A stretch of 64,000 nt of DNA from a virus, in the IMG/VR virus record IMGVR_UViG_3300037149_000100; one strand, 5' to 3'. Below, piece after piece: positions 567 to 48,984 of this stretch. The translations under genes and the position numbers were made by a program. The notes beneath the pieces were generated by a model. The model was given only the letters and a program-made list of their open reading frames with translations, had not been told where the DNA came from and ran no database searches. Each line of letters opens with the position of its first letter. The first letter of the stretch is position 1.

Positions 567-1391
567 GTGGCCCCACGTAAGCCGAAGAAAACGTTCGCTG
601 AAAAAATAACCTTCCCCTCCAAGGAGCCGGAGATAACACATTGGATGGTGCTGGGGCTGGACCCATCCTTGAGCCGCACTGGCTATGCACTTAGCCTGGA
701 TGGGCAGTGGATTGAAATCGGGTCACTGAAACCTGATGATTCATCCCTTCCGATTTGGGTTAGATCAAAAATGATCGCCGGAACAATAACTGAGCGACTT
801 TATGAAGCTATCCAACCCACCCTCAAGCAGGCTCCCAAGGAGCTTGAATCTGGGGGTTATGGGTATGGGTTGTTGGTGTGCATGGAGGTTCCAACCCCTA
901 GAAATGACTTCCTTAATATCGTCTCAAAGGCCATTCATGCCGATCTTCTCCCTCGACTTCCTTCCCTGTTTTCCTCTGTTCACGTTCTCCAAATTAATGC
1001 AGCTACGATGAGATCCAATATGGGGCTCACAGCAACCGGAGATAACAAGTGGGAGAATGTTCGCAAGAGTCAAGAGTTCGCGGACTCCAAGGTATACCCA
1101 GGCATCGATTCGGATTCATGTGATGCAATCCTATTCTCGAAATATGGTCATATGATAGCTGACCTCCTCTCTCCAGAGATGTTGGTAGGTGAGTCCCCAA
1201 TGCTGCTAAGCCTCTGTGATAACACCCCAGTAGTGAAGGGTAAGGGTAAGAGAGCCAAAATCGTGACCAAGGGGATCCTCCATAATCCTGCATATTGGTA
1301 CACCTACACCCCAACCGAATACAGTATTAGCTTAAAAGACGCGACCGTTCCTCCGAAGAAGCGGCTGCAAAAAATCATCATAACCTTCTAA
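567..1391 (+). CDS. RuvC-like Holliday junction resolvase
   Basis: VLGLDPSLSRTGYA, VCME and DSDSCDAI RNase H-fold acidic motifs; next to recA. Confidence 0.75.
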   Translation: MAPRKPKKTFAEKITFPSKEPEITHWMVLGLDPSLSRTGYALSLDGQWIEIGSLKPDDSSLPIWVRSKMIAGTITERLYEAIQPTLKQAPKELESGGYGYGLLVCMEVPTPRNDFLNIVSKAIHADLLPRLPSLFSSVHVLQINAATMRSNMGLTATGDNKWENVRKSQEFADSKVYPGIDSDSCDAILFSKYGHMIADLLSPEMLVGESPMLLSLCDNTPVVKGKGKRAKIVTKGILHNPAYWYTYTPTEYSISLKDATVPPKKRLQKIIITF

Positions 1392-1399
1392 GGAGCAAT

Positions 1400-2644
1400 A
1401 TGGCTGTTAAGCGTATTAAACACAACAAAGAGGCAGGGGATTTCCCTGACCTTAAATCCGCATTTCTGGAAGCCCTGGAAGGTTTTGGAGAAGACCCCAC
1501 AATCCAGAAGATGGAGGTGCAGGAAACGTTTGTCCCAATGGGGTCTATCATCCTGGACCACGTGCTTCAGTTGAAGGGCATCCCCGGTGGAGGTCGAGTC
1601 ATCCAGATTCATGGTAAGGAGCATGGAGGTAAGTCCACTCTGTGTTATAATATCGTCAAGTCCTACCAACGTCTGACTGGAAAGGCGGCGGCAATTTTTG
1701 ATTTTGAAGGGACCAGCACTCCTGAGTATTTCAAGTCTAACGGGGTCAACACTGATCGTGATGCTCTAGTCGTCTTCAAGAACAACTCTGTTGAGGCTGC
1801 GGTTCAGAAGTCAATCGTATTGATGAAGGCTGGAGTTAAAGTGTTCATCTATGACTCTGTTCCCCGCATGAAGTCCATGGTCGATGAGAAGGAGATCATG
1901 AACGGTAAGGCTTTTAAGAACACTGTTGGTCAACATGCAAAAACCATGAACATGTTCTTTGACCTCCTCCTCCCTTATGCCCAACACTACGACTGCGTTC
2001 TGATTATGGTGAACCAGATTCGGGCCAGGATTGACGGGAGTCGAGAGGGTCAGTCGGCTGCGAAGTACTCCACCATCACCAATCTCAACTACATCCTCCC
2101 TGGCGGGTATGCAATGCGCTTCATTCCCAGTCTGACTATCGAAGTCAATGTGGCTAAGGCCCTTCGTGCGGGTGGGGGTGAGTCCGATTGGGACATTGAA
2201 CCCGGTGAGAACAAAGGTAATCATTATGTTGCAACTCGCATTGCCGTTCGTGTCCTGAAAAACAAGGTCACGATGGGTGGATACAGGGCTGGTGAACTCT
2301 ACCTACGTTCTGGTCTTGGGTTGGATGACAACATTAGTATCCGAGAGCTAGCCTTCCGCTATAAGCTGATTGCTTACGTGGGGAAGAAGTGGATAGTGGG
2401 ATTGGAATCTGATCCTATCGCCGTCTATGATTCCAAGGATTCGGCAATTCGGGATATGGTGATAGAGCAAAACCCTGTAGTCCTCAGCAAACTACGAGAA
2501 TTAGTTGTGACGGCTATCGAGAGCGATGAAGGTGGGTTCCTGATTCAGCCTTCGGAAGAGGATCTGGCTTCTTCTGATGAGGATTTCTATCAGAAAATCA
2601 CCACTAAGGTTGCATTTGATGATGATGAGCAGGATCTGTCATGA
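1400..2644 (+). CDS. recA: RecA/UvsX recombinase
   Basis: GRVIQIHGKEHGGKST (Walker A), FIYDSV (Walker B), VNQIRARI, PGGYAMRF, KNKV. Confidence 0.93.
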   Translation: MAVKRIKHNKEAGDFPDLKSAFLEALEGFGEDPTIQKMEVQETFVPMGSIILDHVLQLKGIPGGGRVIQIHGKEHGGKSTLCYNIVKSYQRLTGKAAAIFDFEGTSTPEYFKSNGVNTDRDALVVFKNNSVEAAVQKSIVLMKAGVKVFIYDSVPRMKSMVDEKEIMNGKAFKNTVGQHAKTMNMFFDLLLPYAQHYDCVLIMVNQIRARIDGSREGQSAAKYSTITNLNYILPGGYAMRFIPSLTIEVNVAKALRAGGGESDWDIEPGENKGNHYVATRIAVRVLKNKVTMGGYRAGELYLRSGLGLDDNISIRELAFRYKLIAYVGKKWIVGLESDPIAVYDSKDSAIRDMVIEQNPVVLSKLRELVVTAIESDEGGFLIQPSEEDLASSDEDFYQKITTKVAFDDDEQDLS

Positions 2645-3183
2645 TCATCGACTCCAACAACCTCATTCTCAAAGCCTTTTGGTTCCTAGCCCTCCTGGGC
2701 TCTACCCTATTCATGGCCACACACCTTTCCTACAGCCCCAGTGCCCTTCATTATGGATTGTGGGCTGGCGGGATTGTCTTGGGTGGCTACCTGACAGGGC
2801 TTCTGGGTGTCCTGACTTACACCGTGGCTCATTCCGGAGGGGTCGATCAGGCCCTTCGAGAAATGGATACGCTGGAAAAGTTTGTGGATGCGTTGGCTGA
2901 ACCCTTCCCATGGGCCGATAAGGCTTTTTGGTTCACCGGGCTCTACCTCACCTCCCTCCTTTGGGACTGGCCACTTCTACACGGGGCTCTGCTGTGTGTC
3001 TCTGCTTCACTCCTAGCCACTACCGTTATCTGCATCATTCGCAATTTTCATCTCATCAGAGCCTTCCTTCGTCTCACGATAAAAGAAGTGATGATTGAAA
3101 GTGCGATCAGGGATTTAGTCTCCCATATCTGGTCTTCTAAAGCGGGCAAGGAATGCGATAAAGAGGGCGAAGAGGAATCATGA
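2641..3183 (+). CDS. hypothetical membrane protein
   Basis: About four hydrophobic segments; ATGA coupling to recA. Confidence 0.6.
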   Translation: MIIDSNNLILKAFWFLALLGSTLFMATHLSYSPSALHYGLWAGGIVLGGYLTGLLGVLTYTVAHSGGVDQALREMDTLEKFVDALAEPFPWADKAFWFTGLYLTSLLWDWPLLHGALLCVSASLLATTVICIIRNFHLIRAFLRLTIKEVMIESAIRDLVSHIWSSKAGKECDKEGEEES

Positions 3184-4412
3184 AGTTTCGACTGGTAGGT
3201 AAGGATTTTCAGTCTTGGAAGACCTTCGATTTGAAAGTCAACGGGTTTACCATCATCGTTGGCAGTTCAAATCGAGGGAAGTCCGCCATTGTTAGATCTC
3301 TGCGTGGTATTCTGAGAAATCAGGTTCAGGATGCCTTCATTCGTCATGGTCAAAAAGCAGTAGAACTTAAACTCGAAGTAGAGGATGGGCCTACGGCGGT
3401 TCTGACTAGAGGGAAGACGTTAACCTATAGGGTTAATGGCGAAGACTTTGCCAAACTCAATGGTGATGTGCCCCAGCTAATCAAAGACCTGAAACTGGGG
3501 GAGATCACCATCGGTTCCGCCAAGCTGGACCCCACATTCGCAGGGCAGTTTGACAGCCAGTTCATGATGAACCTGTCTCCCAGCGAATTAAACTCTGTAT
3601 TCGGTCTGTTCAGCAATACCGAGCAGTTGAATCAGGGCAAGAAGGCCATTAACCTCAACAATACTGAAATCAACTCCCAGGCCAAGATGCTGGCTCTGGA
3701 AGTTCAGGTGGGTCATACCAAAATAGCCGCCATTGAGGAGATTAAGCTCCATTATCTTGCCCTCGCCCCTCAGCATGTTGAGGCTACCCATAATGTGGAA
3801 GCGGCTCAGACAGTGCAGACTCTATTGAATCAGAGAGCAGTGCAATGGAGCAGGGTTGTAAGTCTAGAAAGCATCAACCGAATTACCCCACCCTCCACCT
3901 TGAAGGTAGCGAAGTCACACAAGGTTCATGACCTCCTGCTTCATCGAACTCAGGTAACAACCCGTACCAAGGCCCTCCGCCAAGCCTCTCAGGTGGCTCT
4001 ACCTTCGACCGAATTGGTCTCTCGCTACCTTCGCCTAGGGAAGAGCCTCCGACAGGTCCAGAAGCTCCAGGAACGTATTACGGTGGGCTCTGGGGTGCTG
4101 GTTTCGGCCCGTGAGGTCAAATGGGGTCTGATGGTAAGACGATGGGGATTGTGGAACAGCTACTTCCCCCTGCGAAAACGACTTGAAGCTGCCCCCTCTG
4201 TTGTCTCAGTGAGTATGAGCAAGCTGAACGAGGACTTGAAGACCCTAAAGCTTCTCTCCACTCATCCTAAGATTAGAGCCATAGTTGCGACTCATAGTGG
4301 GGCACTGCTGAATAATCTCAGTGAACTTGCAATTCTGCACCAGCAACTTCATGAACTCACAAAAGATGTCATCTCATGCCCGAAATGCGGGTATCAATTT
4401 ATCAAGGAGTAG
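3180..4412 (+). CDS. SbcC/Rad50-like ATPase, N-terminal half ending at the zinc hook
   Basis: DFQSW, Walker A GSSNRGKS, Q-loop, coiled coil, terminal CPKCG; no signature or Walker B motif. Confidence 0.8.
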   Translation: MKFRLVGKDFQSWKTFDLKVNGFTIIVGSSNRGKSAIVRSLRGILRNQVQDAFIRHGQKAVELKLEVEDGPTAVLTRGKTLTYRVNGEDFAKLNGDVPQLIKDLKLGEITIGSAKLDPTFAGQFDSQFMMNLSPSELNSVFGLFSNTEQLNQGKKAINLNNTEINSQAKMLALEVQVGHTKIAAIEEIKLHYLALAPQHVEATHNVEAAQTVQTLLNQRAVQWSRVVSLESINRITPPSTLKVAKSHKVHDLLLHRTQVTTRTKALRQASQVALPSTELVSRYLRLGKSLRQVQKLQERITVGSGVLVSAREVKWGLMVRRWGLWNSYFPLRKRLEAAPSVVSVSMSKLNEDLKTLKLLSTHPKIRAIVATHSGALLNNLSELAILHQQLHELTKDVISCPKCGYQFIKE

Positions 4413-19800: not shown

Positions 19801-20937
19801 ATGCTTGAAGTTCAGAAGTTCCTTAAGAACGGCGGAACTCTTGAGATGCTCAAGGCAGACTACGGCATTAGTGCTCGTGTGAACGAGAGGCTGGGGGTAA
19901 CTTGCCTCAATTACTCTCAAATCATGTCTCCAATGGGTCAGAAGATCGTCAGAGAGTGTCGTGCATTGGTGCTGGAGAGCACCACCTGGGAGGTGAAGTC
20001 ATGCTCCTTCGAACGCTTCTTCAACTTCGGTGAGGGGCACATCCCCAAGGACTTTGACTGGGACAACTTCCAGACGCTGGAGAAGCTGGATGGGTCGCTG
20101 ATTCACTTCTGGTTCCATGACACTGAAGGCTGGCAGTGCGGCACCCGTTCGGTTCCGGATGCGGATACCGGCATGGATGACTCCGGTCTCACATTCAAGC
20201 AGTTGGTCATCCAGACCATCAATGAGATGGGATCGTGTTGGGCTCACTGGACCGACAGCCTCATTCCAGGCTACACTTTTACCTTTGAATTGACCTCGCC
20301 AGAAAATATGATTGTGTGTGATTACCGGGGTCAGCGTAAGCTCACTCTGATTGGTATCCGCAACCTCGAAACCCTCAAGGAGGTGGATGTCCACCAGTGG
20401 CATCAGCCAGGGTATATTGCCCCCTGGCCGGTCGTGAAGCGTTACCCTGGCTTCACCCTGGATGCGGTGCAAGAAGCTGTACAGAAGCGTGACCCGCATG
20501 ACTTCGAGGGTTATGTGCTGGTGGATAAGAACTTTAACAGGGTGAAGATCAAGTCCTCCGCTTACGTGTTCATGTCCAGTCGTCGTGATTCCCTTGGGAA
20601 GTCGAACAAGGCACGGATCGAACTGATCCAAAATGATGCGGTGGATGATGTGCTGTCTAGCCTGCCTGAGTTCGTTCAGGGGAAAATCCTGGGTCTCCAA
20701 CGGAAGCTCAAGACCCTGGTCCAGACCTGTGATGCCCTCTATCAGGCTGTAAAGGATGAGGATACCGATAAGGACTTCGCCCTGAAGGTCCAGCACGGGG
20801 GCTACAGCAGTGTCATGTTCGCTCTGCGGCGTGGCAAGGCTGTGGATTCGTGGGAGCATTTCAAGCGGATGAGCCCCAAGCGAGTATTAGAGTATCTGGA
20901 TGAAGAAGACGACGAAGAGGAGACGGTATGCGAATAA
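19801..20937 (+). CDS. T4 Rnl1-family RNA ligase
   Basis: RECRALVL, RFFNFGE, EKLDGSL, TFEL, EGYV, RVKIKS nucleotidyltransferase motifs. Confidence 0.92.
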   Translation: MLEVQKFLKNGGTLEMLKADYGISARVNERLGVTCLNYSQIMSPMGQKIVRECRALVLESTTWEVKSCSFERFFNFGEGHIPKDFDWDNFQTLEKLDGSLIHFWFHDTEGWQCGTRSVPDADTGMDDSGLTFKQLVIQTINEMGSCWAHWTDSLIPGYTFTFELTSPENMIVCDYRGQRKLTLIGIRNLETLKEVDVHQWHQPGYIAPWPVVKRYPGFTLDAVQEAVQKRDPHDFEGYVLVDKNFNRVKIKSSAYVFMSSRRDSLGKSNKARIELIQNDAVDDVLSSLPEFVQGKILGLQRKLKTLVQTCDALYQAVKDEDTDKDFALKVQHGGYSSVMFALRRGKAVDSWEHFKRMSPKRVLEYLDEEDDEEETVCE

Positions 20938-21142
20938 TTGGTGGGGAGCCCCTCCCAAACGGGACGAAGGTTAGCTTCTGCCTATCCGATGTGGTGACTG
21001 GCACCGGTATGATTCGGGGTATCCACACGATGCCTCAGCCGGTCCTGGGCTACGGCTACATCGTGGAGTGGGACTTTCTGTCCTGTGCGCCTTACGCATA
21101 CCCCTGCATCTCCGTCTTCGATAGCGGCATCACGGTGATGGA

Positions 21143-21574
21143 ATGATTGAAGATGGAGAGCGAAGACCCGGCGTGTTCTACAAGGATGGCAGGCCCCATC
21201 ATTACGAATGCCAGGACTGCAAGAAGCCTGACCCTGTGCATTTCATGGTCAAGGACAGCATATGGGAAGAGGCGGGTATGGGTAAGGGTATTATTTGCCC
21301 CGAATGCTTCGAGATCAGACTGGGACGGAGGCTGGGGATTCAGGATTTCAAGGATGTCCCATCCAACGACATGTTCTTCTATGGGTACCAGATGGCCAAA
21401 TCGCTCTATTACAATCCCCCGTTCATCGCCATCGCCACTTCTATCAAGCGATCAACCCACCCAGGAGAGGAAGTCCTGGAAACTGGGCTGACCTTTCCCG
21501 ATTACCCCTCATGCGAATTCATCGAAGCACATTTCACGATCCTCGACTCCGAGGACAAAAAGGAAAAAGAATGA
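21143..21574 (+). CDS. Cys-rich hypothetical protein
   Basis: CQDC...FMVKDSIW...CPECFEIRLGRRL. Confidence 0.55.
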   Translation: MIEDGERRPGVFYKDGRPHHYECQDCKKPDPVHFMVKDSIWEEAGMGKGIICPECFEIRLGRRLGIQDFKDVPSNDMFFYGYQMAKSLYYNPPFIAIATSIKRSTHPGEEVLETGLTFPDYPSCEFIEAHFTILDSEDKKEKE

Positions 21575-21819
21575 AATATCTGTTTGTTTGCCTCGCCTTG
21601 GTTGCCCTGACTGCCTGTACGGATGCCCAGAGGGCCAAATATACCTCCATCGGTTCCGCTCACCACATCCAGCTTTACTCTGGGGGTAAGCTGATAGGTG
21701 AGTGGGACAGCACCGGAGCCGTCACCAATGAGGGCCAGTCTGATGGATTTGTCTTTGTGGACAAGAAAACCCGTGTGAACACGGAAATAGCCGGAGAGGT
21801 CATCATCACCCAGGAGTAA
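21571..21819 (+). CDS. putative lipoprotein
   Basis: MKYLFVCLALVALTA-C lipobox-like signal. Confidence 0.65.
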   Translation: MKYLFVCLALVALTACTDAQRAKYTSIGSAHHIQLYSGGKLIGEWDSTGAVTNEGQSDGFVFVDKKTRVNTEIAGEVIITQE

Positions 21820-21859
21820 ACCGGGACTATCTGTTTCTCAACTGAAGGCAGGGATAGAA

Positions 21860-24694
21860 ATGAAGGAAGGTGCGTGGATTAATGGTAAGACGGGGAAATT
21901 TGCCTGGATTACCGAACATGCGAGTTGGGTGAAAGACCCTGAGAATGCCCGATCGATTGGCGTTCCTGAAAGCGTAATCGAGAAAATCCAGTCTCTCCGT
22001 TCAGACTTCAACGGCAAGGGTCGTGAAGAGATCCTCGCTACCGTCATGCAGGCCGGGTTCATTCGGATGCGGGGGCATGGCTCATTCTGGACGTTTGAGT
22101 TTACCATGCCCTCAGAAGAAGCGTTGTGGGCTTGCATGTCCTTCCTACAGGACTTCGCTGGCCCATTCACTCAATGCCGGTTTAACAACCTGAGGACCGG
22201 TGAGACCATAGACACCCTCTTTCAAGAATTCGAGAAGACGATGCAGCAAGATCCTACACAGATTTTGAGGATTGCGAAGGTTGTGACCTATCCCCGAATG
22301 GCTTCGTTTTTGGAGCATGTGGGAGATGAGGTCAAGGTTGCCTCCGGCTACCCCAGATTGATGCAAATTATGAAAGGGTTGATACCCACCGTGCATACGT
22401 TTGGCATCATGTCTGTGGATAACCCTCAAAACCAAGCCCTCTCCGAAGAGGAGAATCAAAAGCGAAGAAATCAATTTAAGGCTGACCTCAAACGTGGGTA
22501 TTATGGCTACGTTCAGCACAATGGCATGTATGACCGCCCCGAAAAGGCGTTCTTTATCATGAATGTCAGATTGTCTGAACTGACCCAATGGTGCGGAGAG
22601 ACTCAGTTCGACCAGGAGAGCTACATTTATGGTCAAGTGAACCACGACGAACATGAAGTCGTAATGACGCTGTATTATGGTGCAACACCGGGTCCACAGC
22701 GAAAGGTTGTGTTGAGAGTGGAGAATGGGGTTGAAAACTACTACTCAGAGTACAAGGGACGTAAGTTCGTCATCCCCTTCTTTGATGAAACTGAAGCTCC
22801 TGAATCCGAAGAGTCCAATCTCCCCACTGGGGTCCCATTTGATAAGAATGATGTGGATACTCCGAAGAACGCTTCACAGTTAAACCTCATTCTAGCCAAT
22901 GCAGAAGGTCTTCGAAAGGATGCGCTGGGCCTAACAGTCGGAATGGGCAATTGGAACAAACGAGGAATGCTTCTCCAGGCTGTGAGGCAGTTGGAGCCTA
23001 AGCCTAGGCCCAAAGTAGGGATGGACTCTAAGTATGAGCTTGCCCTAATTCTCAAGTATGTGCGAATGAATCTTAGCAGTTTCCGGAGTATGCTGACCCG
23101 ACCGGATGCGGCTAAAGCAATTCATGACAAACTTAAGAAGGAATGCCCTAGGGGTGAGTTGGCTGATCTGATGGCCCCGATAATCATGGAACGGGCTCAA
23201 GGTGTAATTCAGGAGACCAAACTCAAACAAGCTCTGGAGGGAATGTTTAATTCCCAGCCGGGAATGAACGAGGAGTTGGATTACAAACGGACCCTGGAGG
23301 ATGAGAAGGGAGGGGCCACGAACGTCATGAAGGCCAGCCTGAAGACCGCTGTGCTGATCCCCCACACCCTGTCTAGTTTCAAAGATGATCAGACGAATCA
23401 GAAGGCAGCAGAACTGTTTTCCGATTACTCGGCCAGATTCGACACCGGTAAGGCCATCGCTCTGACCCGCAGGGATCTGATGCGATCAGACTATGACATG
23501 GCCACAGCGGCTCCTAGGCCCCCTAGAGTGCCCTCCACCATCCCCCCTTCAGCCCCACCGAAACCAAAGAAGCCGGAGCCGGGGGCACAGCTTTTCAGTG
23601 ATGAGGAGTTACGTTTTCCCACCGGTATGATTCAACAAGCCGCTCCCTCCCCCCTACGAGTGAAAGTGACTTCCCCCCAGGTGGATCCCAAGTTCTTCCG
23701 GTTCTGGATGGAGCAATTATACAATTCTGGTGCGTACCGACCCCTCACGCAAGGAGCCGTGCAGCAGGGCATCAGGGCGTCAGATGTGTTGGAATTGCCA
23801 TTCTACAACGTCAAGATCAAGGATGTGGCACAGATTGGCCAGAACCTCCCAGACTACGATTTCCTCATTCAACGAGTGGGCAACACCGGGAAGGTGCTGA
23901 CTCGAACGGCTCATAAGGTAGCAGCCTTGTTCCATGATCGTGGTTGGATTTTGCCAACTGGAGAGTTCTTACCCGTTAAGGGTGCGGTTAATCTGGATAT
24001 TCGTGAGTTTAATCAAGATGAAGAACATCATGATATGATTGCCGAACGCTACTTTGAAGGTGGGACCGAAGAAGCATATGATAATGAGTGGATACGTATC
24101 GGCGTGTATGGTACGGAAGGTTATGCGGATCTGGGTGGCTGTAACGATAAGCAGTTTAACACAATGTGGAGTCATTTCAACGAAACAAAGCCTAAGTTCA
24201 TTATTTTCGGCTATTTGGTTGAGGGTCGGTTAGACCTTGAGGACTTCTTGAAATGCAAAAATCTTGCAGGTATAGAGAGAGCGGTTAGACGCACTTACAG
24301 AACCGCCTCTGGGCAGCCTACTATGGGTTTCAACGTCAACGACTCTGCCGCTCCATTCACCGATTGGATACTTCGGGGTGAGAAGGAAATTGAGACTAGA
24401 AACTCCGACTCACTCAGACCTCACATTGGAGAACGAGTCGGTATCATCCGCACAGGGGTTGGCCCCGCTACCCTGGTTGGTTATTGCACCCTAGGTGAGC
24501 CCATTATCTATCGGGACAATCGAGACTTCCGTCAGGATCAGTCGCAGCATATGGTTCCAGAGGGTCCGATGTGGGACTTGTTCCCCGGAATGATCAAGTA
24601 TGGTTATCCTATTCTGGATGTGGAGCCGTGTGAACCCAAAGCAATTACCTCTCAAGGCCGAGTGTGGAGACGACTAGCAAGAATTGAAAATTGA
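21860..24694 (+). CDS. 944-aa multi-module protein with C-terminal ASCH-like domain
   Basis: APFTDWILRGEKEIETR ASCH motif near C-terminus; Pro-rich linker; several unrelated segments. Confidence 0.65.
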   Translation: MKEGAWINGKTGKFAWITEHASWVKDPENARSIGVPESVIEKIQSLRSDFNGKGREEILATVMQAGFIRMRGHGSFWTFEFTMPSEEALWACMSFLQDFAGPFTQCRFNNLRTGETIDTLFQEFEKTMQQDPTQILRIAKVVTYPRMASFLEHVGDEVKVASGYPRLMQIMKGLIPTVHTFGIMSVDNPQNQALSEEENQKRRNQFKADLKRGYYGYVQHNGMYDRPEKAFFIMNVRLSELTQWCGETQFDQESYIYGQVNHDEHEVVMTLYYGATPGPQRKVVLRVENGVENYYSEYKGRKFVIPFFDETEAPESEESNLPTGVPFDKNDVDTPKNASQLNLILANAEGLRKDALGLTVGMGNWNKRGMLLQAVRQLEPKPRPKVGMDSKYELALILKYVRMNLSSFRSMLTRPDAAKAIHDKLKKECPRGELADLMAPIIMERAQGVIQETKLKQALEGMFNSQPGMNEELDYKRTLEDEKGGATNVMKASLKTAVLIPHTLSSFKDDQTNQKAAELFSDYSARFDTGKAIALTRRDLMRSDYDMATAAPRPPRVPSTIPPSAPPKPKKPEPGAQLFSDEELRFPTGMIQQAAPSPLRVKVTSPQVDPKFFRFWMEQLYNSGAYRPLTQGAVQQGIRASDVLELPFYNVKIKDVAQIGQNLPDYDFLIQRVGNTGKVLTRTAHKVAALFHDRGWILPTGEFLPVKGAVNLDIREFNQDEEHHDMIAERYFEGGTEEAYDNEWIRIGVYGTEGYADLGGCNDKQFNTMWSHFNETKPKFIIFGYLVEGRLDLEDFLKCKNLAGIERAVRRTYRTASGQPTMGFNVNDSAAPFTDWILRGEKEIETRNSDSLRPHIGERVGIIRTGVGPATLVGYCTLGEPIIYRDNRDFRQDQSQHMVPEGPMWDLFPGMIKYGYPILDVEPCEPKAITSQGRVWRRLARIEN

Positions 24695-24788
24695 TCTTGA
24701 CGGGCCGGTGCCGATTGAGTATTATAGATAAGAAGGTTCCGTTGTTTTTACAGAAACGGAACCTTTGACTGAGCAGCCGTGCTGCTTC

Positions 24789-27232
24789 TGTCCATTCCTT
24801 CACCCCTTCCAGGAGCGCCCATGTGCGAATACCAGGGACACGAATTTGGAGCCCGCTACCCCGACTCCATGTGCATTGACGGCTATCTCTGGGACGCAGA
24901 CAACTGCGACGACCAGGGCAACCTCTACGAGCCCATGGACGCCATCCCCTGCCCGATGTGCAGCCCGAAAGCCGCCATCGGCTGGTGGACGGAACGGTTC
25001 GATAGCCCCTCCAGGCGCAAAGCCCGCAAGGCTGCCCGTTTCCTGGTCGCGGACATTCGCCGGAATCGCGGCGTCGAAACCCTCAGCAACCCTGCCGAAT
25101 AGGCGAATGTCCAGGCGCAGCCCTGGACCAAGGAGAAAATCATGACCCCTGAACAGTTTGAAAAAGCCCTGGAGGATGCCGTCAAGGGCGGGAGGGTAAC
25201 CGTCACCATCAGCGAAAGCTGCCCCGAGGATGGCTGCAACGGGACACTCCACCGCATCTCCGAGAACCTCCAATGCTGTGACCAGTGCAACACCGTTTTC
25301 GGCGCCTAGCCACGCATGTCCAGAAAGGATAACCAACCATGGACCCATTCACCCTCGATGACCTACTGAAAATGCACCCGCATCAGGTCGTGGAAATTCT
25401 GAACCGCTACCGGGAGGCGTTGGAGGAAGTGAAAGCCTCCGTCTGCGGCGAAGCGGTGTCCAAGTGGGGCATCGACCCCCAGACCACAAAATCCCGCATC
25501 CGCATCGCCAATACCTGCGATGTCGCCCTTCTCAACCTGCCGAAAGGCTGATGTCCATGAGGACAAACCCATGACTAAGAAGGATGGACTGCCATCCGTG
25601 GCAAAAACCAAGTTCGAATTCGGATTCCGGCTGATCGGTATCCCCAAGATGTGCGCCAACTGCGCCCACCGGGATTACGCCTGCTGTGGATTGAGCCCTC
25701 AGGACTTCACCATCGGCAAGCTCGACAACCACGTTTGCGACCGATGGAAGCGCAGCCACCTGAATTAACCATCCTGTCCAGAAAGGTGAACCATGCCCAA
25801 GTGGCCGCCCTGTCCCACTCCAGTGTCTCCGCCCAGCCGGGGAGTCATCATCAAAACCTGCACCCACTACGTCATCGAGCGAAAAACGGCAGGACCAGAA
25901 TGGGAGCCCTGGGCTTTCCCAAAGAATGACCGGCTGAACGCGCTGGAGACGCTGGAGTGGTGCCGCAAGGAACAACCCGGAGGCACCTTTCGGTTGATCT
26001 TCGAAACCCGTGAACACATCGCAGCCGAATGAGGCTGTCTAGGATCCCTATGTCACAAACATGCAAACCAATCCGCCGATGGAAGTTGAAAGCTATGCGG
26101 CACTTGGGGAAAACCAACCCCCAATTAACCCGTTCTGGGGCGAAGCGGGTTTGCCCCTGGCAGAACCTATCCCCCCGTAACCTTCGCCTGTATCGATAAC
26201 CGTTGCCCAGGTTGCGGGCTGTAGTTGTCCACTATTCGCCCGGAGGGCAGATGAAAACCGTCATCGTTGAAGGCAAACGATACCCCGTCATTGAGGACCT
26301 GGGGTTCCAGCATGGGCGATGCTGCACCGCCGTTGAAGCCCAGACGCCAGATGGTCCCAGGATCGCCACCAAGGGCTCCCTCATCGGGTCGAAGTGGCAG
26401 TGGGCTGGACCCGCCCCCGTCTTGCCTCGCGGTCCCATTGCGGGGCAGTAGGCGCATGTCCATCTGGAGGAACCATGACCAGCAAGGAAATGCTCAAAGC
26501 CACGTTGCCCAAGGACTGCATCTGGGAGAACATCGCGCCGCTTGGCCGTATTCCAAATTGGAGGATCATCCCAAAGCCGAAAGGGTGGGGTGAGTGATGG
26601 GCGCTTTCGACGATTCCTACCACATGACCTGGACCAAGGCAGATCGCCGCCGGATCAAGCGGGACCGCGCCAAGTCGCCCTTCGCATGGGTGCAGGCCCT
26701 CCCGCTGCCCTGGGAACGGTGAGCCATGAACAGAGACGAGCTTGAGGCAAGTATTGCAGCGAGAAATCCGGAAGCATGGCGTCCATCTCAAATATCATCC
26801 AAAGTGTCTCAGGAAATGGACGAGTTAATCCGGTGCCGCGCCATTCAGGGAATGGACGAGTTGATGTACTGCCGAGCCATCCTGTATCATGCAGGGGACT
26901 TCTCCACCAGCATCCATGGCGGCATTGAAGCCCTAGTGGCAGAGCGGAATGCCCTCCGTGCCAAAGTGCAGAGCCAGCGTGACCGGATCAATGACCTTGA
27001 ATCTTGGCGTCCAACCCCCCACCCCGCCGGGACGCCCTTGAAGCCGATGCCTGATCCGAAGCGCAGCGAGTGGCAAGCCGACCCCCTCAAATGGATGTTC
27101 GCCATGTCGGAATGGGGCGAATCTGCCAGCGCCAGGATTGCAGACCTGGAAGCGATCTTGGCAACCAGCGTAATGTGCCCCAAGTGCGCCGAAGTCATCC
27201 TGCCCCACCAACAGATCCGTTGATCCTGTCCA
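24789..27232 (+). repeat. array of small GC-rich genes punctuated by intergenic TGTCCA
   Basis: TGTCCA at 24789, 25108, 25317, 25552, 25775, 26226, 26457, 27227 and TGTCTA at 26036; ORFs 24821-25102, 25142-25309, 25339-25551, 25571-25768, 25793-26032, 26251-26451, 26475-26597, 26726-27223. Confidence 0.8.
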
Positions 27233-27292
27233 GGATCCCCCTGGACTTAACCACTCCCGAATCATCAGTTCGAAAAAAAAGAAAAAATAAAG

Positions 27293-27323
27293 CTATACAG
27301 AATTCCCAACTTCCGAGTATCAT
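27293..27323 (+). promoter_or_regulatory. phage promoter motif CTATAC-N16-G(A/G)GTAT
   Basis: Same spacing at 19107, 27293, 51249 and 58606; the downstream box alone precedes many genes. Confidence 0.7.
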
Positions 27324-27338
27324 CATTGTAGGGCAGGA

Positions 27339-27529
27339 ATGAAAAACAACCTTCCGGTCCTAATCATGGAGTCAGCCTTCAATGTTCAATCTATTCGCCA
27401 TTGCCAATCATACCCCACAGGGGTGGGCAAAGGTTTATAGTTTTTCCGCTGATCGCCTCCCCATGACTTAACACTCACGCAAATCCGAATCGGAACCCCC
27501 GTGAGTCCTTCCAAGAACCACGGGGGTTC
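27339..27529 (+). promoter_or_regulatory. putative leader peptide (27339-27440) and attenuator hairpin (27493-27529)
   Basis: 33-aa ORF right after promoter; 11-bp GC hairpin; leader segment can pair with the hairpin 5' arm. Confidence 0.45.
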
Positions 27530-27685
27530 GGCTTTATGGAGCCAACCCGAAAATCCTTGACAATTTCATAAAGCAAATTTAGTAACCCACCCTCCGCTTT
27601 AGGGCGAGGGGTGAAGGGTTCGGGGAGGGCTCCAGAAACTCCTCACTTGAAAAAATGGGCTACACACCTCTTAATTGAGGTGTGT

Positions 27686-28315
27686 ATGTTCAAGTCATGT
27701 ATTCATTGTTCGAAAGAGTTCCAGGCCAAGGACAACAGAAAGAAGTTCTGCTCTCAGTCCTGTTCAGCTTCTCACGCGCAATTAGGGAAGCCGAGCCACA
27801 ACCAAAAGAAGCCACGAAACCTGTGCTACTGTGGTAGCCCAATCGAAAACCCAGTCAGCGTGTTCTGTAGTGACCAGTGCCGCCAATCCCAAAAGATGGG
27901 AGGTATCACCGAATGGGTACAGGGCGGTCCAGCCCCGCTAGGGCCAGAATCAATCACCCGCTGGGTTAAGAAGTTGCGAGGAAGTGCCTGTGAAGAATGC
28001 GGGTGGGACCAACAAAACCCGGTATCAGGTAGGAGCCAGACCCAGGTGGACCACATAGATGGGGACAGCACCAACCTGATGTACACCAACCTCAAAGTGC
28101 TCTGCCCCAACTGTCACTCCATGACCCCCACATTCGGGAGCTTAAACCGAGGAAAAGGGACAAGGACTAAACGGTTCTCCAACCTCGTGCTACTTCCACG
28201 CATCTGCCCCACTTGTGGTGACTCGTTCACTCCAATCAGCAAAAGGCACACAAGCTGTTCTCGTAAGTGCCGGGGTAAGGCAACGTATCAAAAACAAATA
28301 TCTCGGAGTAGTTAA
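27686..28315 (+). CDS. HNH endonuclease with Zn-ribbon repeats
   Basis: CEECG...QVDHIDGDSTN...NLKVLCPNCH; multiple CxxC/FCS motifs. Confidence 0.9.
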   Translation: MFKSCIHCSKEFQAKDNRKKFCSQSCSASHAQLGKPSHNQKKPRNLCYCGSPIENPVSVFCSDQCRQSQKMGGITEWVQGGPAPLGPESITRWVKKLRGSACEECGWDQQNPVSGRSQTQVDHIDGDSTNLMYTNLKVLCPNCHSMTPTFGSLNRGKGTRTKRFSNLVLLPRICPTCGDSFTPISKRHTSCSRKCRGKATYQKQISRSS

Positions 28316-28375
28316 ACGGTAGAACCCAGTCCTGACATGGCTGTGACGGCAGTTCAACTCTGCCCTCTGAGACCA
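28302..28375 (+). tRNA. tRNA-Val(GAC)
   Basis: Cloverleaf; loop CTGACAT; CCA; overlaps HNH stop. Confidence 0.8.
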
Positions 28376-28385
28376 TCAAAAATTT

Positions 28386-28448
28386 TAGACACTAACAGCA
28401 ACCCAAAATTTCACCTTTGGCTGTGAAAAGCAAAATGTGTCGTGTCTA
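28386..28448 (+). ncRNA. TAACAGCAA-clamp RNA copy 1 (anticodon-like hairpin only)
   Basis: TAGACAC/GTGTCTA outer stem, TAACAGCAA, hairpin TTTCAC-CTTTGGCT-GTGAAA. Confidence 0.6.
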
Positions 28449-36440: not shown

Positions 36441-36555
36441 ATTTCGAGTAATAAGCTATATGACCCTTCTGTGGAGAGCAACAATGCTTTGGGATTGACC
36501 TGACACACCTTTTGATTACGATATGCGGCGGCGTACCGTATCACAAGGAGAACCT

Positions 36556-36804
36556 ATGTCAAAACCACGCACAAGACTCTTCAATCACACCGTTCCTCTC
36601 GTAACGGTTCAAGGCACAGACGTTAGTCTGAAGCCTGATCTCCTCCTCGTAATCGAGGGTGGTCGGATCCGAACCGCTCGAAGAAACCCGGTTGCCCCAA
36701 TCAACCGCATCATCAGTCTGCTAGGAGATCTTCTGGAAGAACTGAAGGATGACAGGTACGCGGAAGAAATAAGAAAGAGTGGCAAGACTCTGAAGAAAAA
36801 ATAA
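36556..36804 (+). CDS. hypothetical protein
   Basis: ATG after AAGGAG. Confidence 0.5.
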   Translation: MSKPRTRLFNHTVPLVTVQGTDVSLKPDLLLVIEGGRIRTARRNPVAPINRIISLLGDLLEELKDDRYAEEIRKSGKTLKKK

Positions 36805-36866
36805 GTTCAGGGTGGAAGCGAGTAAGTGTTGGCCCGAGCAAACTTTAACCAAAGTCGGGCCTCATA

Positions 36867-36943
36867 CGGTGCGTAGCACAGTCTGGGAGCGCACATCCTT
36901 GGGGTGGATGAGGTCGGAGGTTCAAATCCTCTCGCACCGACCA
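36867..36943 (+). tRNA. tRNA-Pro(GGG)
   Basis: CATCC-TTGGGGT-GGATG; ACCA. Confidence 0.92.
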
Positions 36944-37454
36944 ACTTCTGAACTCTAACATAGAGGTCAGGATGAGAGGTTTTCTGAAAATACTCAGGAC
37001 TCTGAAGAAGCATGAGATGGGTAAGGAAGCAATTCGCTCCTTATCTCCGAAGCCCTGAATGAGCCCTGGCCGTTGGGTGAGAAGCTGATGTGTGGACTGG
37101 ACATCACGAAGAAAGAGTTCCCTTACATCAGACGGAACATCAAAGGATACCTGGATTACATTTATCCGAGTGGTAATTACCCTGAGATATTCAATCGAAT
37201 CTTCAGACCATGCAGCGTATGTGGGAAAGAAGATATATGTTTCATATATCGGAACGAGTTATTCTGCTCTGAGAAGTGTGAGAATCAGGCTGAATATTTC
37301 AAAATTGCTGAAATGATTGAAACGTATGCTCCAGCGATGTCAGAGAAGCGAAAGAAGTGGGTTCAGGGCCTACTGTTTCGAAACGCGATGCTGGAGAATT
37401 GGACGGATGAACAATACAAAGAGTTCATCCAGGAATATGAACACAAATAATAAT

Positions 37455-46432: not shown

Positions 46433-46594
46433 CGATGAGGTAAAAATTATTCTCGGTTTTTTCTTCTCGATTCGAATCAACCCTGAGTATTATGTAAACG
46501 GAACATAACATAGGCTGGCTCGGTGCCTTCGAACCGGACACTCCATGGACATCCTGTCCAACAGATCCGAACGGATCAACTCAAGGGAGATTAA

Positions 46595-47308
46595 ATGAAC
46601 AAGCTCTACACTCTACTCATCGCTGCGGCGATGCTTCTTTCCATCCCGGCTGCGGCTCAGACCGTCCAGGAGGGTACGGGATTCAACGGCTCGGCCACCC
46701 AGACCAACGGTGCCGTGACCCAGGGGGTCGTATCCTACGGCCTGCCCAGCAGCACCTGGACCGGTGAAACCCTCAACGGCGTCTACGTTGGCTCCTATGG
46801 TGTGGGTGGGTCCCAGGCCGGATACGTGGGCTTCTCCTCCCAGATGACCTCCACCAGCGCAGACGACGAGACCGGCAACGGTTCCGGCTACACCAGCGGC
46901 ACCACCGTGGCCCAGGGCAACCTGATCCAGGGGGCCAACACGGTTGGCTCGCAGGCTAACGGCTCTACTGCCGGTAACGCCAACGTCTACCTGACCTCCG
47001 ACACTGGCCAGAACAGCTACTACATGAATGGCAGCGGCAGCCTGACCACTGGCACCTCGGCCCTGATCGGCAACTTCACCGTGGCAGCCAATGGTGGTCT
47101 CTCTCCCACTAACGGAGCGTTCGCTTCGTCCGCGACCACGGGTGAATTCAACTTCTCCGTGTCCGGTCTCACACCGAACATCGGCTGGCTCGGGAACGGC
47201 TCGACCGTGCAGACTGGTTATTCCCAGGTGTCCAACCTCGGAAACGGCTTCTCCGCCACCAGCACCGCTACCGTCACCTCTACGGCTTGCCCTGTCGTGA
47301 GCAAGTAA
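46595..47308 (+). CDS. secreted Gly/Ser/Thr-rich protein
   Basis: Signal peptide; very low-charge G/S/T/N composition. Confidence 0.65.
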   Translation: MNKLYTLLIAAAMLLSIPAAAQTVQEGTGFNGSATQTNGAVTQGVVSYGLPSSTWTGETLNGVYVGSYGVGGSQAGYVGFSSQMTSTSADDETGNGSGYTSGTTVAQGNLIQGANTVGSQANGSTAGNANVYLTSDTGQNSYYMNGSGSLTTGTSALIGNFTVAANGGLSPTNGAFASSATTGEFNFSVSGLTPNIGWLGNGSTVQTGYSQVSNLGNGFSATSTATVTSTACPVVSK

Positions 47309-48603: not shown

Positions 48604-48910
48604 AAGATTCCTTCATCCGATACCGGTGTCCTTAATTGGATGCCGGTATTAGTTTTGAAAGGAGAAGAATTGTGAGAGTCAAGAGCATGAATCTCCCCGT
48701 TCCCCGCCGTATTCATCCGATGATTCGCAAGCATATGAAGCGGGTCTCTGATTGGCTCCGCAAGGTAGGCTACCGGGCCTACCATTTTGAAAAGCGGGTC
48801 AACCGATATTCCTGAATAGAAGTTTTCGAAAGTTTCTGTCTACAGATTCCCCAAGCAGAGAGTATTACATCATATGGATAAGTTCACGTAGATTTTCTTA
48901 TCAGGACCAA

Positions 48911-48984
48911 GCAGCCGTAATTCATCGGTAGAATGGTTTGCTCTAACCAGACTTAGGCGGGTTCGACTCCTGTCGGCTGCACCA
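48911..48984 (+). tRNA. amber suppressor tRNA (CTA)
   Basis: GCAGCCG/CGGCTGC-ACCA; GTTTG-CTCTAAC-CAGAC; canonical T arm. Confidence 0.88.

Follow-up and report, generated by a model that had tools for sequence, protein, structure and literature searches.

A run of small genes carried by a very large uncultured phage from peat or permafrost forms a mobile array, in which promoterless gene cassettes, all in the same orientation behind one promoter-like site, are bounded by the hexamer TGTCCA. The array lies in a window of 64,000 nt, the whole stretch of DNA that was analysed (IMG/VR record IMGVR_UViG_3300037149_000100; coordinates below are window positions unless a contig is named). We lean towards the view that the cassettes are exchanged by a sequence-specific strand-transfer enzyme that acts in trans. 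The comparison contigs were drawn from IMG/VR, JGI and Logan assemblies; those from JGI and Logan, which are short and come from other samples, were retrieved by exact-protein look-ups and cut at the hexamers, and the resulting pieces were clustered at an identity of at least 90%. The runs in which the window sequence occurs are peat and permafrost metagenomes.

Between 24789 and 27232 (2,444 nt) TGTCCA occurs nine times on the plus strand (at 24789, 25108, 25317, 25457, 25552, 25775, 26226, 26457 and 27227) and never on the minus strand, and it is the commonest hexamer of this segment. A first-order Markov model predicts 0.8 occurrences (Poisson P ~2e-7), and the maximum reached in 3,000 simulations was five. 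The excess is local, because the count over the entire window is ordinary (44 on both strands against 42.6 expected). A preliminary description of this DNA had reported eight TGTCCA plus one TGTCTA where about 0.6 would be expected; the local enrichment stands, with the figures corrected as given here. Degenerate copies mark two further gene junctions, TGTCTA at 26036 (correctly recognized earlier, although placed at 26037) and TGCCCA at 26204. Eight of the nine TGTCCA copies, as well as the TGTCTA, are situated 0–7 nt past a stop codon and 8–28 nt ahead of a start codon, with a ribosome-binding site (RBS) in between. The copy at 25457 is located inside gene 3. The array itself comprises ten small open reading frames (ORFs) of 40–165 aa, several of them with Cys-rich products; genes 8, 9 and 10 are coupled through ATGA- or GTGATG-type overlaps, with no intervening hexamer. 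As previously described, the array is richer in GC than its surroundings (59% versus 51% elsewhere in the window).

Near relatives of the phage differ from it by gain, loss and re-ordering exactly at TGTCCA, the pattern that the preliminary description had proposed to look for. In L035, a 4.7-kb metagenome contig that is 99.93% identical to the window over 20751–24794 and 99.8% identical from 27226 on, the whole ten-gene array is replaced by one unrelated 144-nt cassette, with both joints at the hexamer. In a second relative (L011) the leader, identical letter for letter, is joined at the hexamer straight to gene 8, and contigs from the independent runs X5 and X8 contain the same joint (24788 to 26457, with seven letters in common). 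The leader–gene 8 form is the major one in X8, with a depth of 17 versus 0–5 over genes 1–7, and therefore both forms of the array co-exist in one sample. A more distant contig, L036 (76–88% identity), has the gene for the 944-aa protein, which precedes the array in the window, joined to the downstream region, and it possesses neither promoter, leader, array nor end hairpin. Taken together with the forms seen in L035 and L011, this indicates that the unit is an insertion whose content turns over faster than the flanks accumulate substitutions. Alignment of 24679–27247 with L036 1196–1216 further shows that the insertion rewrote the last codons of the 944-aa gene (..RRLARIEN-stop versus ..RRLASF-stop), and that neither a target duplication nor terminal repeats surround the inserted promoter, array and hairpin. 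Among the N-terminal relatives of the 944-aa protein (L001–L006) the hexamer is not in excess. A separate observation concerns L011, which past the leader hexamer is 99.6% identical over 3 kb (1090–4092) to another array carrier, G2 (contig L018, 2504–5506); the shared stretch includes an SNF2-helicase gene that is itself preceded by the hexamer. Judging from this alignment, large genes can ride in the array as well, unless L011 is a hybrid of two phages.

Short peat contigs contain cassettes that are 99–100% identical to those of the window in about 20 different adjacencies. With g for the genes of the window and x for further cassettes, the window reads leader, g1, g2, g3, g4, g5, g6, remnant, g7, g8–10, end. 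L040 reads g7, x4, g1, x5, and L047 reads x6, g7, x4, g1, x5, x7; L048 has x6, g7, x7, g4, g5, and L061 (1–1223) has g7, x7, g4, g5, g6, remnant, g7; the order is x3, g1 in L039, x3, x4, g1 in L063, and g1, g2, g3 followed by another cassette in both L042 and L043. Since g7 appears twice in L061, cassettes have been duplicated as well as moved. Cassette 1, at 99% identity, is seen after four different neighbours and before four different ones; cassette 4 is preceded by gene 3 in the window and by x7 in both L048 and L061; cassette 7, which is 100% identical in L040, is followed by genes 8–10, x4 or x7.

The joints themselves are precise. When the same 25-nt head lies behind different neighbours (11 pairs), only 0–1 nt are common upstream of the hexamer, and when the same tail precedes different neighbours (14 pairs), 0–4 nt are common downstream of it; across these 25 informative comparisons the hexamer is thus the only sequence common at the joint. 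The ends of homology blocks (at least 93% identity), which are not independent of each other, fall within 8 nt of a hexamer in 40 of 63 cases, and the others trace back to a few events, namely an in-frame indel of 192 nt in gene 10, the truncation of gene 10 in the carrier G3, where it has a new start, and one internal segment that the carriers G8 and G9 share. Likewise, 11 of the 15 informative loose ends of independent peat contigs are found at hexamer edges (25105, 25114, 25552, 25557, 26226, 26456, 26457 and 26462) or beside the degenerate copies (26045, past cassette 5, where an X8 contig diverges from the window, and 26211, past cassette 6, where X3 and X5 contigs do so), and only three lie elsewhere. 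One joint that leads backwards corresponds, in the assembled contigs, to a re-ordered array and not to a circle; circular cassettes were not observed, although contigs are unable to reveal them.

Chance clustering or an assembly artefact can be given virtually no credence as the source of this pattern. The hexamer count of the whole window is indeed ordinary, and many of the supporting contigs are short metagenome assemblies, but the local excess has a probability of ~2e-7 and a complete strand bias, and separate studies and assemblers (JGI, Logan and IMG/VR) yielded the same joints independently. De Bruijn chimeras need overlaps of k-1 (at least 20–30 nt), not 6 nt; the arrangements seen in the contigs are real, because a six-letter repeat cannot cause such mis-joins. 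Cassettes are lost, gained, duplicated, replaced and re-ordered, and the breaks and joins behind these changes are confined to the hexamer.

To define the site, we derived flank rules from a set of 52 non-redundant tails. A G occupies position -5 in 39 of them, and position -4 is A or C in 47, whereas -3 is never C and -1 is never G; on the downstream side, +3 is never G. The flanks contribute approximately 2.3 bits upstream and 1.4 bits downstream, there are no conserved arms, and within spacers that measure only ~20–45 nt in all nothing is conserved apart from the hexamer and these weak flanks. The functional site, which is confined to one strand, spans about 11 nt and reads G-[A/C]-[not C]-N-[not G]-TGTCCA (G-M-D-N-H-TGTCCA), often with a stop codon built in. 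The G at -5 is retained with any stop codon and distance, whether it comes from TGA (3-nt gap), from TAG (4-nt gap) or from a G that follows, and is thus a component of the site and not a consequence of the stop codon. None of the four upstream rules holds for the hexamer inside gene 3 (25457), and no joint falls there. The variants, for their part, travel with the upstream cassette: TGCCCA after gene 6 and TGTCTA after gene 5 are each found in two downstream contexts, and gene 7 occurs both behind TGTCCA and behind TGTCTA. The site hence appears to be the 3' end of the upstream cassette, and the crossover would take place at, or just after, the final CA. Folding of 45 sites gave no common structure that includes the hexamer. 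About 40% of the 5' untranslated regions (UTRs) begin with a small GC-rich hairpin, and at array ends, as in one family of UTRs, a hairpin takes its 5' arm from the hexamer; the two GTCCAGG..CCTGGAC hairpins noticed earlier were recovered, one in the UTR of cassette 2 and the other at the end of the array.

These features also bear on a purely regulatory role, in which the hexamer would be only the binding site of a regulator, similar to the start-associated sequences (SAS) or stoperators of mycobacteriophages, and arrays would differ through homologous exchange in flanks or shared cassettes. Whole-array swaps such as that between the window and L035 could indeed proceed through the 99.9% identical flanks, and mycobacteriophages do possess one-orientation intergenic motifs, the SAS, whose reader is not known (PMC3203893). 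We nevertheless regard this explanation as improbable: the ~20 adjacencies of 99–100% identical cassettes require new joints, all of them at the hexamer; the position of the hexamer follows the stop codon before it (gap of 0–9 nt), not the start codon; one copy stands at the end of the array with no gene after it; and the SAS, which includes the Shine–Dalgarno (SD) sequence and sits 3–7 nt ahead of the start codon, is unlike TGTCCA.

The cassettes are bracketed by what may be regarded as a platform, consisting of a sigma-70-type promoter, two leader hairpins, the first TGTCCA and a terminal hairpin; N cassettes are accompanied by N+1 hexamers. Each cassette comprises a 5' UTR with an RBS, one to three small ORFs, a tail of 0–9 nt and TGTCCA, and the whole row would be read as one operon from the leader promoter. 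The promoter box, already pointed out in the preliminary description, overlaps the phage's own GAGTATTAT promoter-type motif, is letter-identical in L011 and L035, and is absent from L036. The leader has a fold of -29 kcal/mol (z = -5.2) with two stable hairpins, which alignment shows to be homologous among the window, G2, G3 and G7; the pairing of the second, directly 5' of the first hexamer, is kept in G2 and G3 despite different stem sequences. The partner of the first hexamer is gene 1 in the window, gene 8 in L011, X5 and X8, and another cassette in L035. At the opposite end, the terminal hairpin recurs in L035, with an analogous GTCCA..TGGAC end in G7, and a terminal hexamer without a gene behind it is found in the window, L035, G4 and G7. 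Only the leader has a promoter-like site; neither -35/-10 pairs nor terminators were found at the internal hexamers. It is very improbable that each hexamer acts as a minimal promoter or start site for a phage RNA polymerase or sigma factor, with the cassettes as autonomous morons. Short phage-specific promoters do exist, such as the 8-nt late promoter of T4, yet the shortest distances from hexamer to ATG (8–13 nt) leave no room for a start site and an RBS, the hexamer is G+C-rich and has no upstream element, and the same signal is present in phages with unrelated transcription machinery and once more in a terminal copy that has no gene behind it.

The same architecture is found in IMG/VR contigs with unrelated backbones, at 4–12 sites per array and always on the coding strand, and in all arrays the order is stop codon, 0–9 nt, TGTCCA, UTR with RBS, start codon. 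At least six phage backbones of 51–65% GC carry such arrays and have almost nothing else in common; essentially, the carriers share cassettes alone with the window and with each other. They include G2 (36 kb, 63% GC, with a family-A DNA polymerase, a primase-polymerase and an SNF2 helicase), the further backbones G3 and G4, the mutually related G7 and G8 (DnaB, NinB and a Ref-like nuclease), and G9, a complete temperate phage with two integrases. Cassette 8 has 94–95% nucleotide identity with G2 and G4, phages of 63–64% GC, and is partly common to G3, while the UTR type of cassette 2, TGTCCAGGCGCWGCCCTGGA, precedes unrelated ORFs in G2, G3, G7, G8 and G9. The GC content of the arrays is 55–62% throughout, higher than the backbone value in the window and lower in five of the six other arrays; this constancy argues for a common pool of cassettes, of ~59–60% GC, that encode small, often Cys-rich accessory proteins and are shared by unrelated peat phages. 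The cassette proteins are probably early host-takeover or counter-defence functions. Two observations on array surroundings may be added. In G7 and G8 the gene adjoining the leader upstream encodes the Ref-like RecA-dependent nuclease (PF16786; L022 7736–8389 and L023 8–469), and the G9 array is bracketed by two tyrosine-recombinase genes, the upstream one Xer-like (L026 3591–4631; G9 36468–36962).

Two properties of the joints lead us to favour an enzyme. RecA-type recombination samples about 8 nt, and the 6–7 shared letters fall below the needs of RecA-type or annealing recombinases; as six letters are too few for homologous recombination of either type, a sequence-specific enzyme is the likelier agent. 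The equally widespread RBS, moreover, is not a joint in recent events. Such a strand-transfer enzyme would act in trans and not be encoded beside the array, being either host-encoded or of an unrecognised family; by analogy only, the candidates would be a HUH nickase/relaxase-like enzyme, a type IB topoisomerase (TopIB)-like enzyme, or a tyrosine recombinase that uses the hexamer as its overlap region. More tentatively still, TGTCCA and its five-base upstream context could be the recognition and cleavage site of a new single-strand-specific recombination system acting in trans, host-encoded or of an unrecognised family, that keeps a cassette pool shared by the unrelated phages of one habitat, a possibility that we place somewhat short of probable.

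Several points weigh against an enzyme of this kind. Pfam scans of the ORFs of the window, G2 and G8 detected no serine, tyrosine, HUH or TopIB family. In agreement with the preliminary description, the window contains no tyrosine or serine recombinase among the scanned ORFs of at least 110 aa; PF00589 is absent from the scanned window ORFs, and just one of five carrier records, G9, has a tyrosine recombinase (Xer-like, 87 bits against TIGR02249, whose cut-off is 265). No protein family common to all arrays or to all carriers was found, and we know of no recombinase that works on a linear site of 6–11 nt without arms. In addition, older comparisons reveal a second class of joints near start codons, and modules of 35–50 nt made of tail, hexamer and UTR are common to unrelated ORFs, both of which fit recombination at conserved expression signals. 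Because some joints retain variant hexamers, the site cannot be indispensable, and the position of the crossover is deduced from only three variant sites. The nucleases encoded near arrays (HNH in the window, the Ref-like RecA-dependent nuclease in G7 and G8, a NUMOD3 protein in G3 and the integrase in G9) were set aside, as they belong to different, non-homologous families.

Some of these points would be accommodated if the hexamer worked in the RNA, the alternative raised in the preliminary description. UGUCCA would then be a punctuation mark between cistrons, cut by an endonuclease or bound by a protein, much as RNase III sites separate the early genes of T7. The hexamer would be kept by this function, joints would fall on it by short-homology or copy-choice events, being the sequence that all spacers share, and the shuffling would be incidental; a cut would leave the downstream mRNAs with the GC-rich 5' hairpin of ~40% of the UTRs. 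We consider this unlikely, if far less so than the regulatory and promoter roles discussed above. The hexamer is strictly co-oriented with transcription and sited between stop codon and RBS, many UTRs have a hairpin straight after it, and the tail-hexamer-UTR modules on unrelated ORFs, the older joints near start codons and the negative recombinase searches would all suit such a signal, for which the promoter early stem-loop (PeSL) cassettes of T4-type phages also offer a precedent (PMC2839356, PMC4122927). On the other hand, 6–7 shared letters are fewer than RecA-type or annealing recombinases use, and yet all recent joints lie at the hexamer and none at the equally shared RBS. One reader common to six unrelated phages would be required, the distance from hexamer to start codon ranges from 8 to ~57 nt, no common fold includes the hexamer, the spacers are too short for a ribozyme, and the Rfam search was negative. 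Contigs from RNA runs also span two hexamers, a weak argument given that DNA carry-over is possible; those of run X15 cover parts of the array and, as assembled contigs, carry no information on RNA ends, strand or level. RNA punctuation and a recombination role at the hexamer are not exclusive, and may co-exist.

The individual features of the array are listed in the table below. The product of gene 1 provides the sole family match among the array genes, phrog_20542, a family whose function is not known, and homologues of gene 1 in other phages (L013–L017) sit in ordinary overlapping operons without the hexamer. Its stop codon is TAG and the ATG of gene 2 follows 42 nt on in the same frame (25100–25144); as the phage has a tRNA with anticodon CTA (48911–48984), amber suppression would fuse genes 1 and 2, which may be a coincidence. 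Amber read-through as an explanation was set aside, the other joints being out of frame. A TGTCTA at 48837 lies ahead of this suppressor tRNA. The UTR hairpin of cassette 2 (25109–25128) takes in the preceding hexamer. Gene 10 contains an in-frame segment of 192 nt (26960–27158), in place of which G2, G3, G4 and L011 have 7 nt; the short form is also present in a minor X3 contig.

Features of the TGTCCA-bounded array and its platform in the window
Feature	Positions	Strand	Detail or basis
Leader promoter-like site, TTGACG-17-TATTAT, sigma-70-type	24697–24725	+	10/12 positions match (scan)
Leader hairpin 1, GGTTCCGTT..AACGGAACC	24732–24766	+	Fold, alignment
Leader hairpin 2	24771–24787	+	Folds of window, L018 and L012 leaders
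First hexamer, platform or 'attI-like' site	24789–24794	+	Alternative joints
Cassette 1	24795–25113	+	UTR, gene 1 (24821–25102, 93 aa, Cys-rich, phrog_20542), tail, TGTCCA
Cassette 2	25114–25322	+	Hairpin UTR, gene 2 (25142–25309, 55 aa)
Cassette 3	25323–25557	+	Gene 3 (25339–25551, 70 aa), with intragenic hexamer 25457–25462
Cassette 4	25558–25780	+	Gene 4 (25571–25768, 65 aa)
Cassette 5	25781–26041	+	Gene 5 (25793–26032, 79 aa); end is variant TGTCTA (26036–26041)
Cassette 6	26042–26209	+	Gene 6 (26050–26199, 49 aa); end is degenerate TGCCCA (26204–26209)
Remnant of deleted cassette, 22 nt	26210–26231	+	2-nt head, tail ..ctgTAGt, TGTCCA
Cassette 7	26232–26462	+	Gene 7 (26251–26451, 66 aa)
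Cassette 8	26463–27232	+	Overlapping gene 8 (26475–26597), gene 9 (26597–26722) and gene 10 (26726–27223)
Platform terminal hairpin, GTCCAGG-atccc-CCTGGAC	27228–27246	+	5' arm is the last hexamer

Outside the array, the window encodes 29 tRNA genes together with an NAD-dependent DNA ligase, an RNA ligase, ThyX, two DNA methylases, a RecA-like protein, a release-factor-like gene and a Cas12-type nuclease. Within 46440–46600, a perfect palindrome, TGGACA-tcc-TGTCCA (46546–46560), stands behind a second GAGTATTAT-type promoter motif, just upstream of a GC-rich island (46.6–48.6 kb, 55–60% GC); from its sequence, this region may be a solitary platform or a cassette of the same kind. Beyond the end of the array, 27340–27877 is mostly non-coding up to the start of the HNH gene at 27611 and is covered by an X15 RNA-run contig at a depth of 78 versus 2–6 over the array, and may represent an abundant small RNA or the 5' leader of the HNH/tRNA region. 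Rfam has no family in this interval, and over 24500–28400 it returned one tRNA and nothing else. Further searches were equally negative. The array had no blastn match in the cultured-phage collection, the nearest virus record (G001) does not have the array region, exact-protein look-ups gave zero matches for gene 6 and no new context for the 944-aa protein, gene 8 of G2 and a 67-aa protein, and the spacers of the phage's type V CRISPR had no match to arrays or carriers beyond chance hits of 12–16 nt. A 20-mer from the hairpin UTR gave seven chance matches to genome contigs, none with an array and the best-looking one inside ileS, and so no clue to the host. Literature searches for the hexamer and for integron-like phage arrays found TGTCCA-bounded cassettes in no publication.

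The mosaic structure of phage genomes is commonly explained by rare illegitimate recombination and subsequent selection, or by homologous exchange that takes place at long linkers. In the present arrays, a mark of 6–11 nt directs cassette-precise exchange, at a pace that leaves strains 99.9% identical elsewhere with wholly different arrays, and the same cassettes are found on the move between a 51% GC jumbo phage and small phages of 60–65% GC. Through the arrays, dozens of tiny ORFans stand out as a mobile set under functional selection, worth screening for anti-defence activity. If an enzyme reads the site, it would represent a new minimal-site recombination system, with possible use in programmable cassette assembly, and would give phages a defined route to share host-takeover and counter-defence genes.

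The array may be compared with several known systems. The pdif (Xer) modules of Acinetobacter plasmids are genes bounded by short sites that a host enzyme moves between replicons without a recombinase of their own; Xer/dif sites, however, are 28 bp long (XerC-6-XerD, with two 11-bp arms) and alternate in orientation, whereas the sites described here are direct, have 6–11 nt and lack arms. Poxvirus-type TopIB (CCCTT) and the oriT/nic sites of HUH relaxases provide a strand-specific site of 5–9 nt located 5' of the cut, which stays with the upstream DNA and leaves the downstream sequence free. The geometry suggested for TGTCCA would be the same, a mechanistic analogy only, since no such enzyme was detected in the scanned carriers. 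Like the stoperators of Cluster A mycobacteriophages, the hexamer is short, asymmetric and in one orientation. The SAS and ESAS motifs of Cluster K mycobacteriophages share these traits, together with short gaps and an association with non-structural genes of different families (PMC3203893). The SAS, 13 nt long including the SD core, sits 3–7 nt ahead of the start codon, occurs in a single phage cluster only and is not reported as a recombination joint (PMC3203893), whereas TGTCCA is common to unrelated phages, keeps a variable distance from the start codon behind the stop to which it is tied, has a separate RBS and is present after the last gene as well.

The PeSL of T4-type phages are composite units of a sigma-70 promoter and a terminator stem-loop (PMC2839356, PMC4122927). 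As in our arrays, they are repeated intergenic elements in hyperplastic regions of small ORFans, have been proposed as vectors of horizontal transfer, and contain the ends of indels and replacements between close relatives (PMC2839356, PMC4122927). PeSLs are long enough for true homologous recombination and supply a promoter per gene, and mini-circles that arise when neighbouring repeats recombine are a further mark of PeSL regions; the arrays described here have one promoter each, only 6–11 conserved nt, no terminators between genes, and are shared across unrelated phage families.

The closest likeness is to integrons, as the preliminary description had proposed, and it holds for the architecture (one promoter, co-oriented promoterless cassettes, N+1 sites and exchange at a core) and not for membership, given that attC structure, GTTRRRY and integrase are all missing. 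The attC of integrons is an imperfect palindrome of 55–140 nt with R''/L''-L'/R' boxes and RYYYAAC/GTTRRRY cores, in contrast to a linear site of ~11 nt; IntI is encoded beside the array, whereas here no integrase is found beside the array or common to the carriers; and our arrays reside in lytic and temperate phage genomes with spacers of only ~20–45 nt. In both systems, nonetheless, the promoter is at the head and a cassette mostly contains one small ORF, the boundary site appears to form the 3' end of the cassette with the crossover at its distal edge, and the same cassettes are encountered in many orders and in unrelated replicons, within arrays that have a composition of their own. Should exchange by a trans-acting system prove true, these arrays would be, in effect, a phage 'integron' that uses a minimal linear site and lacks an integrase of its own.

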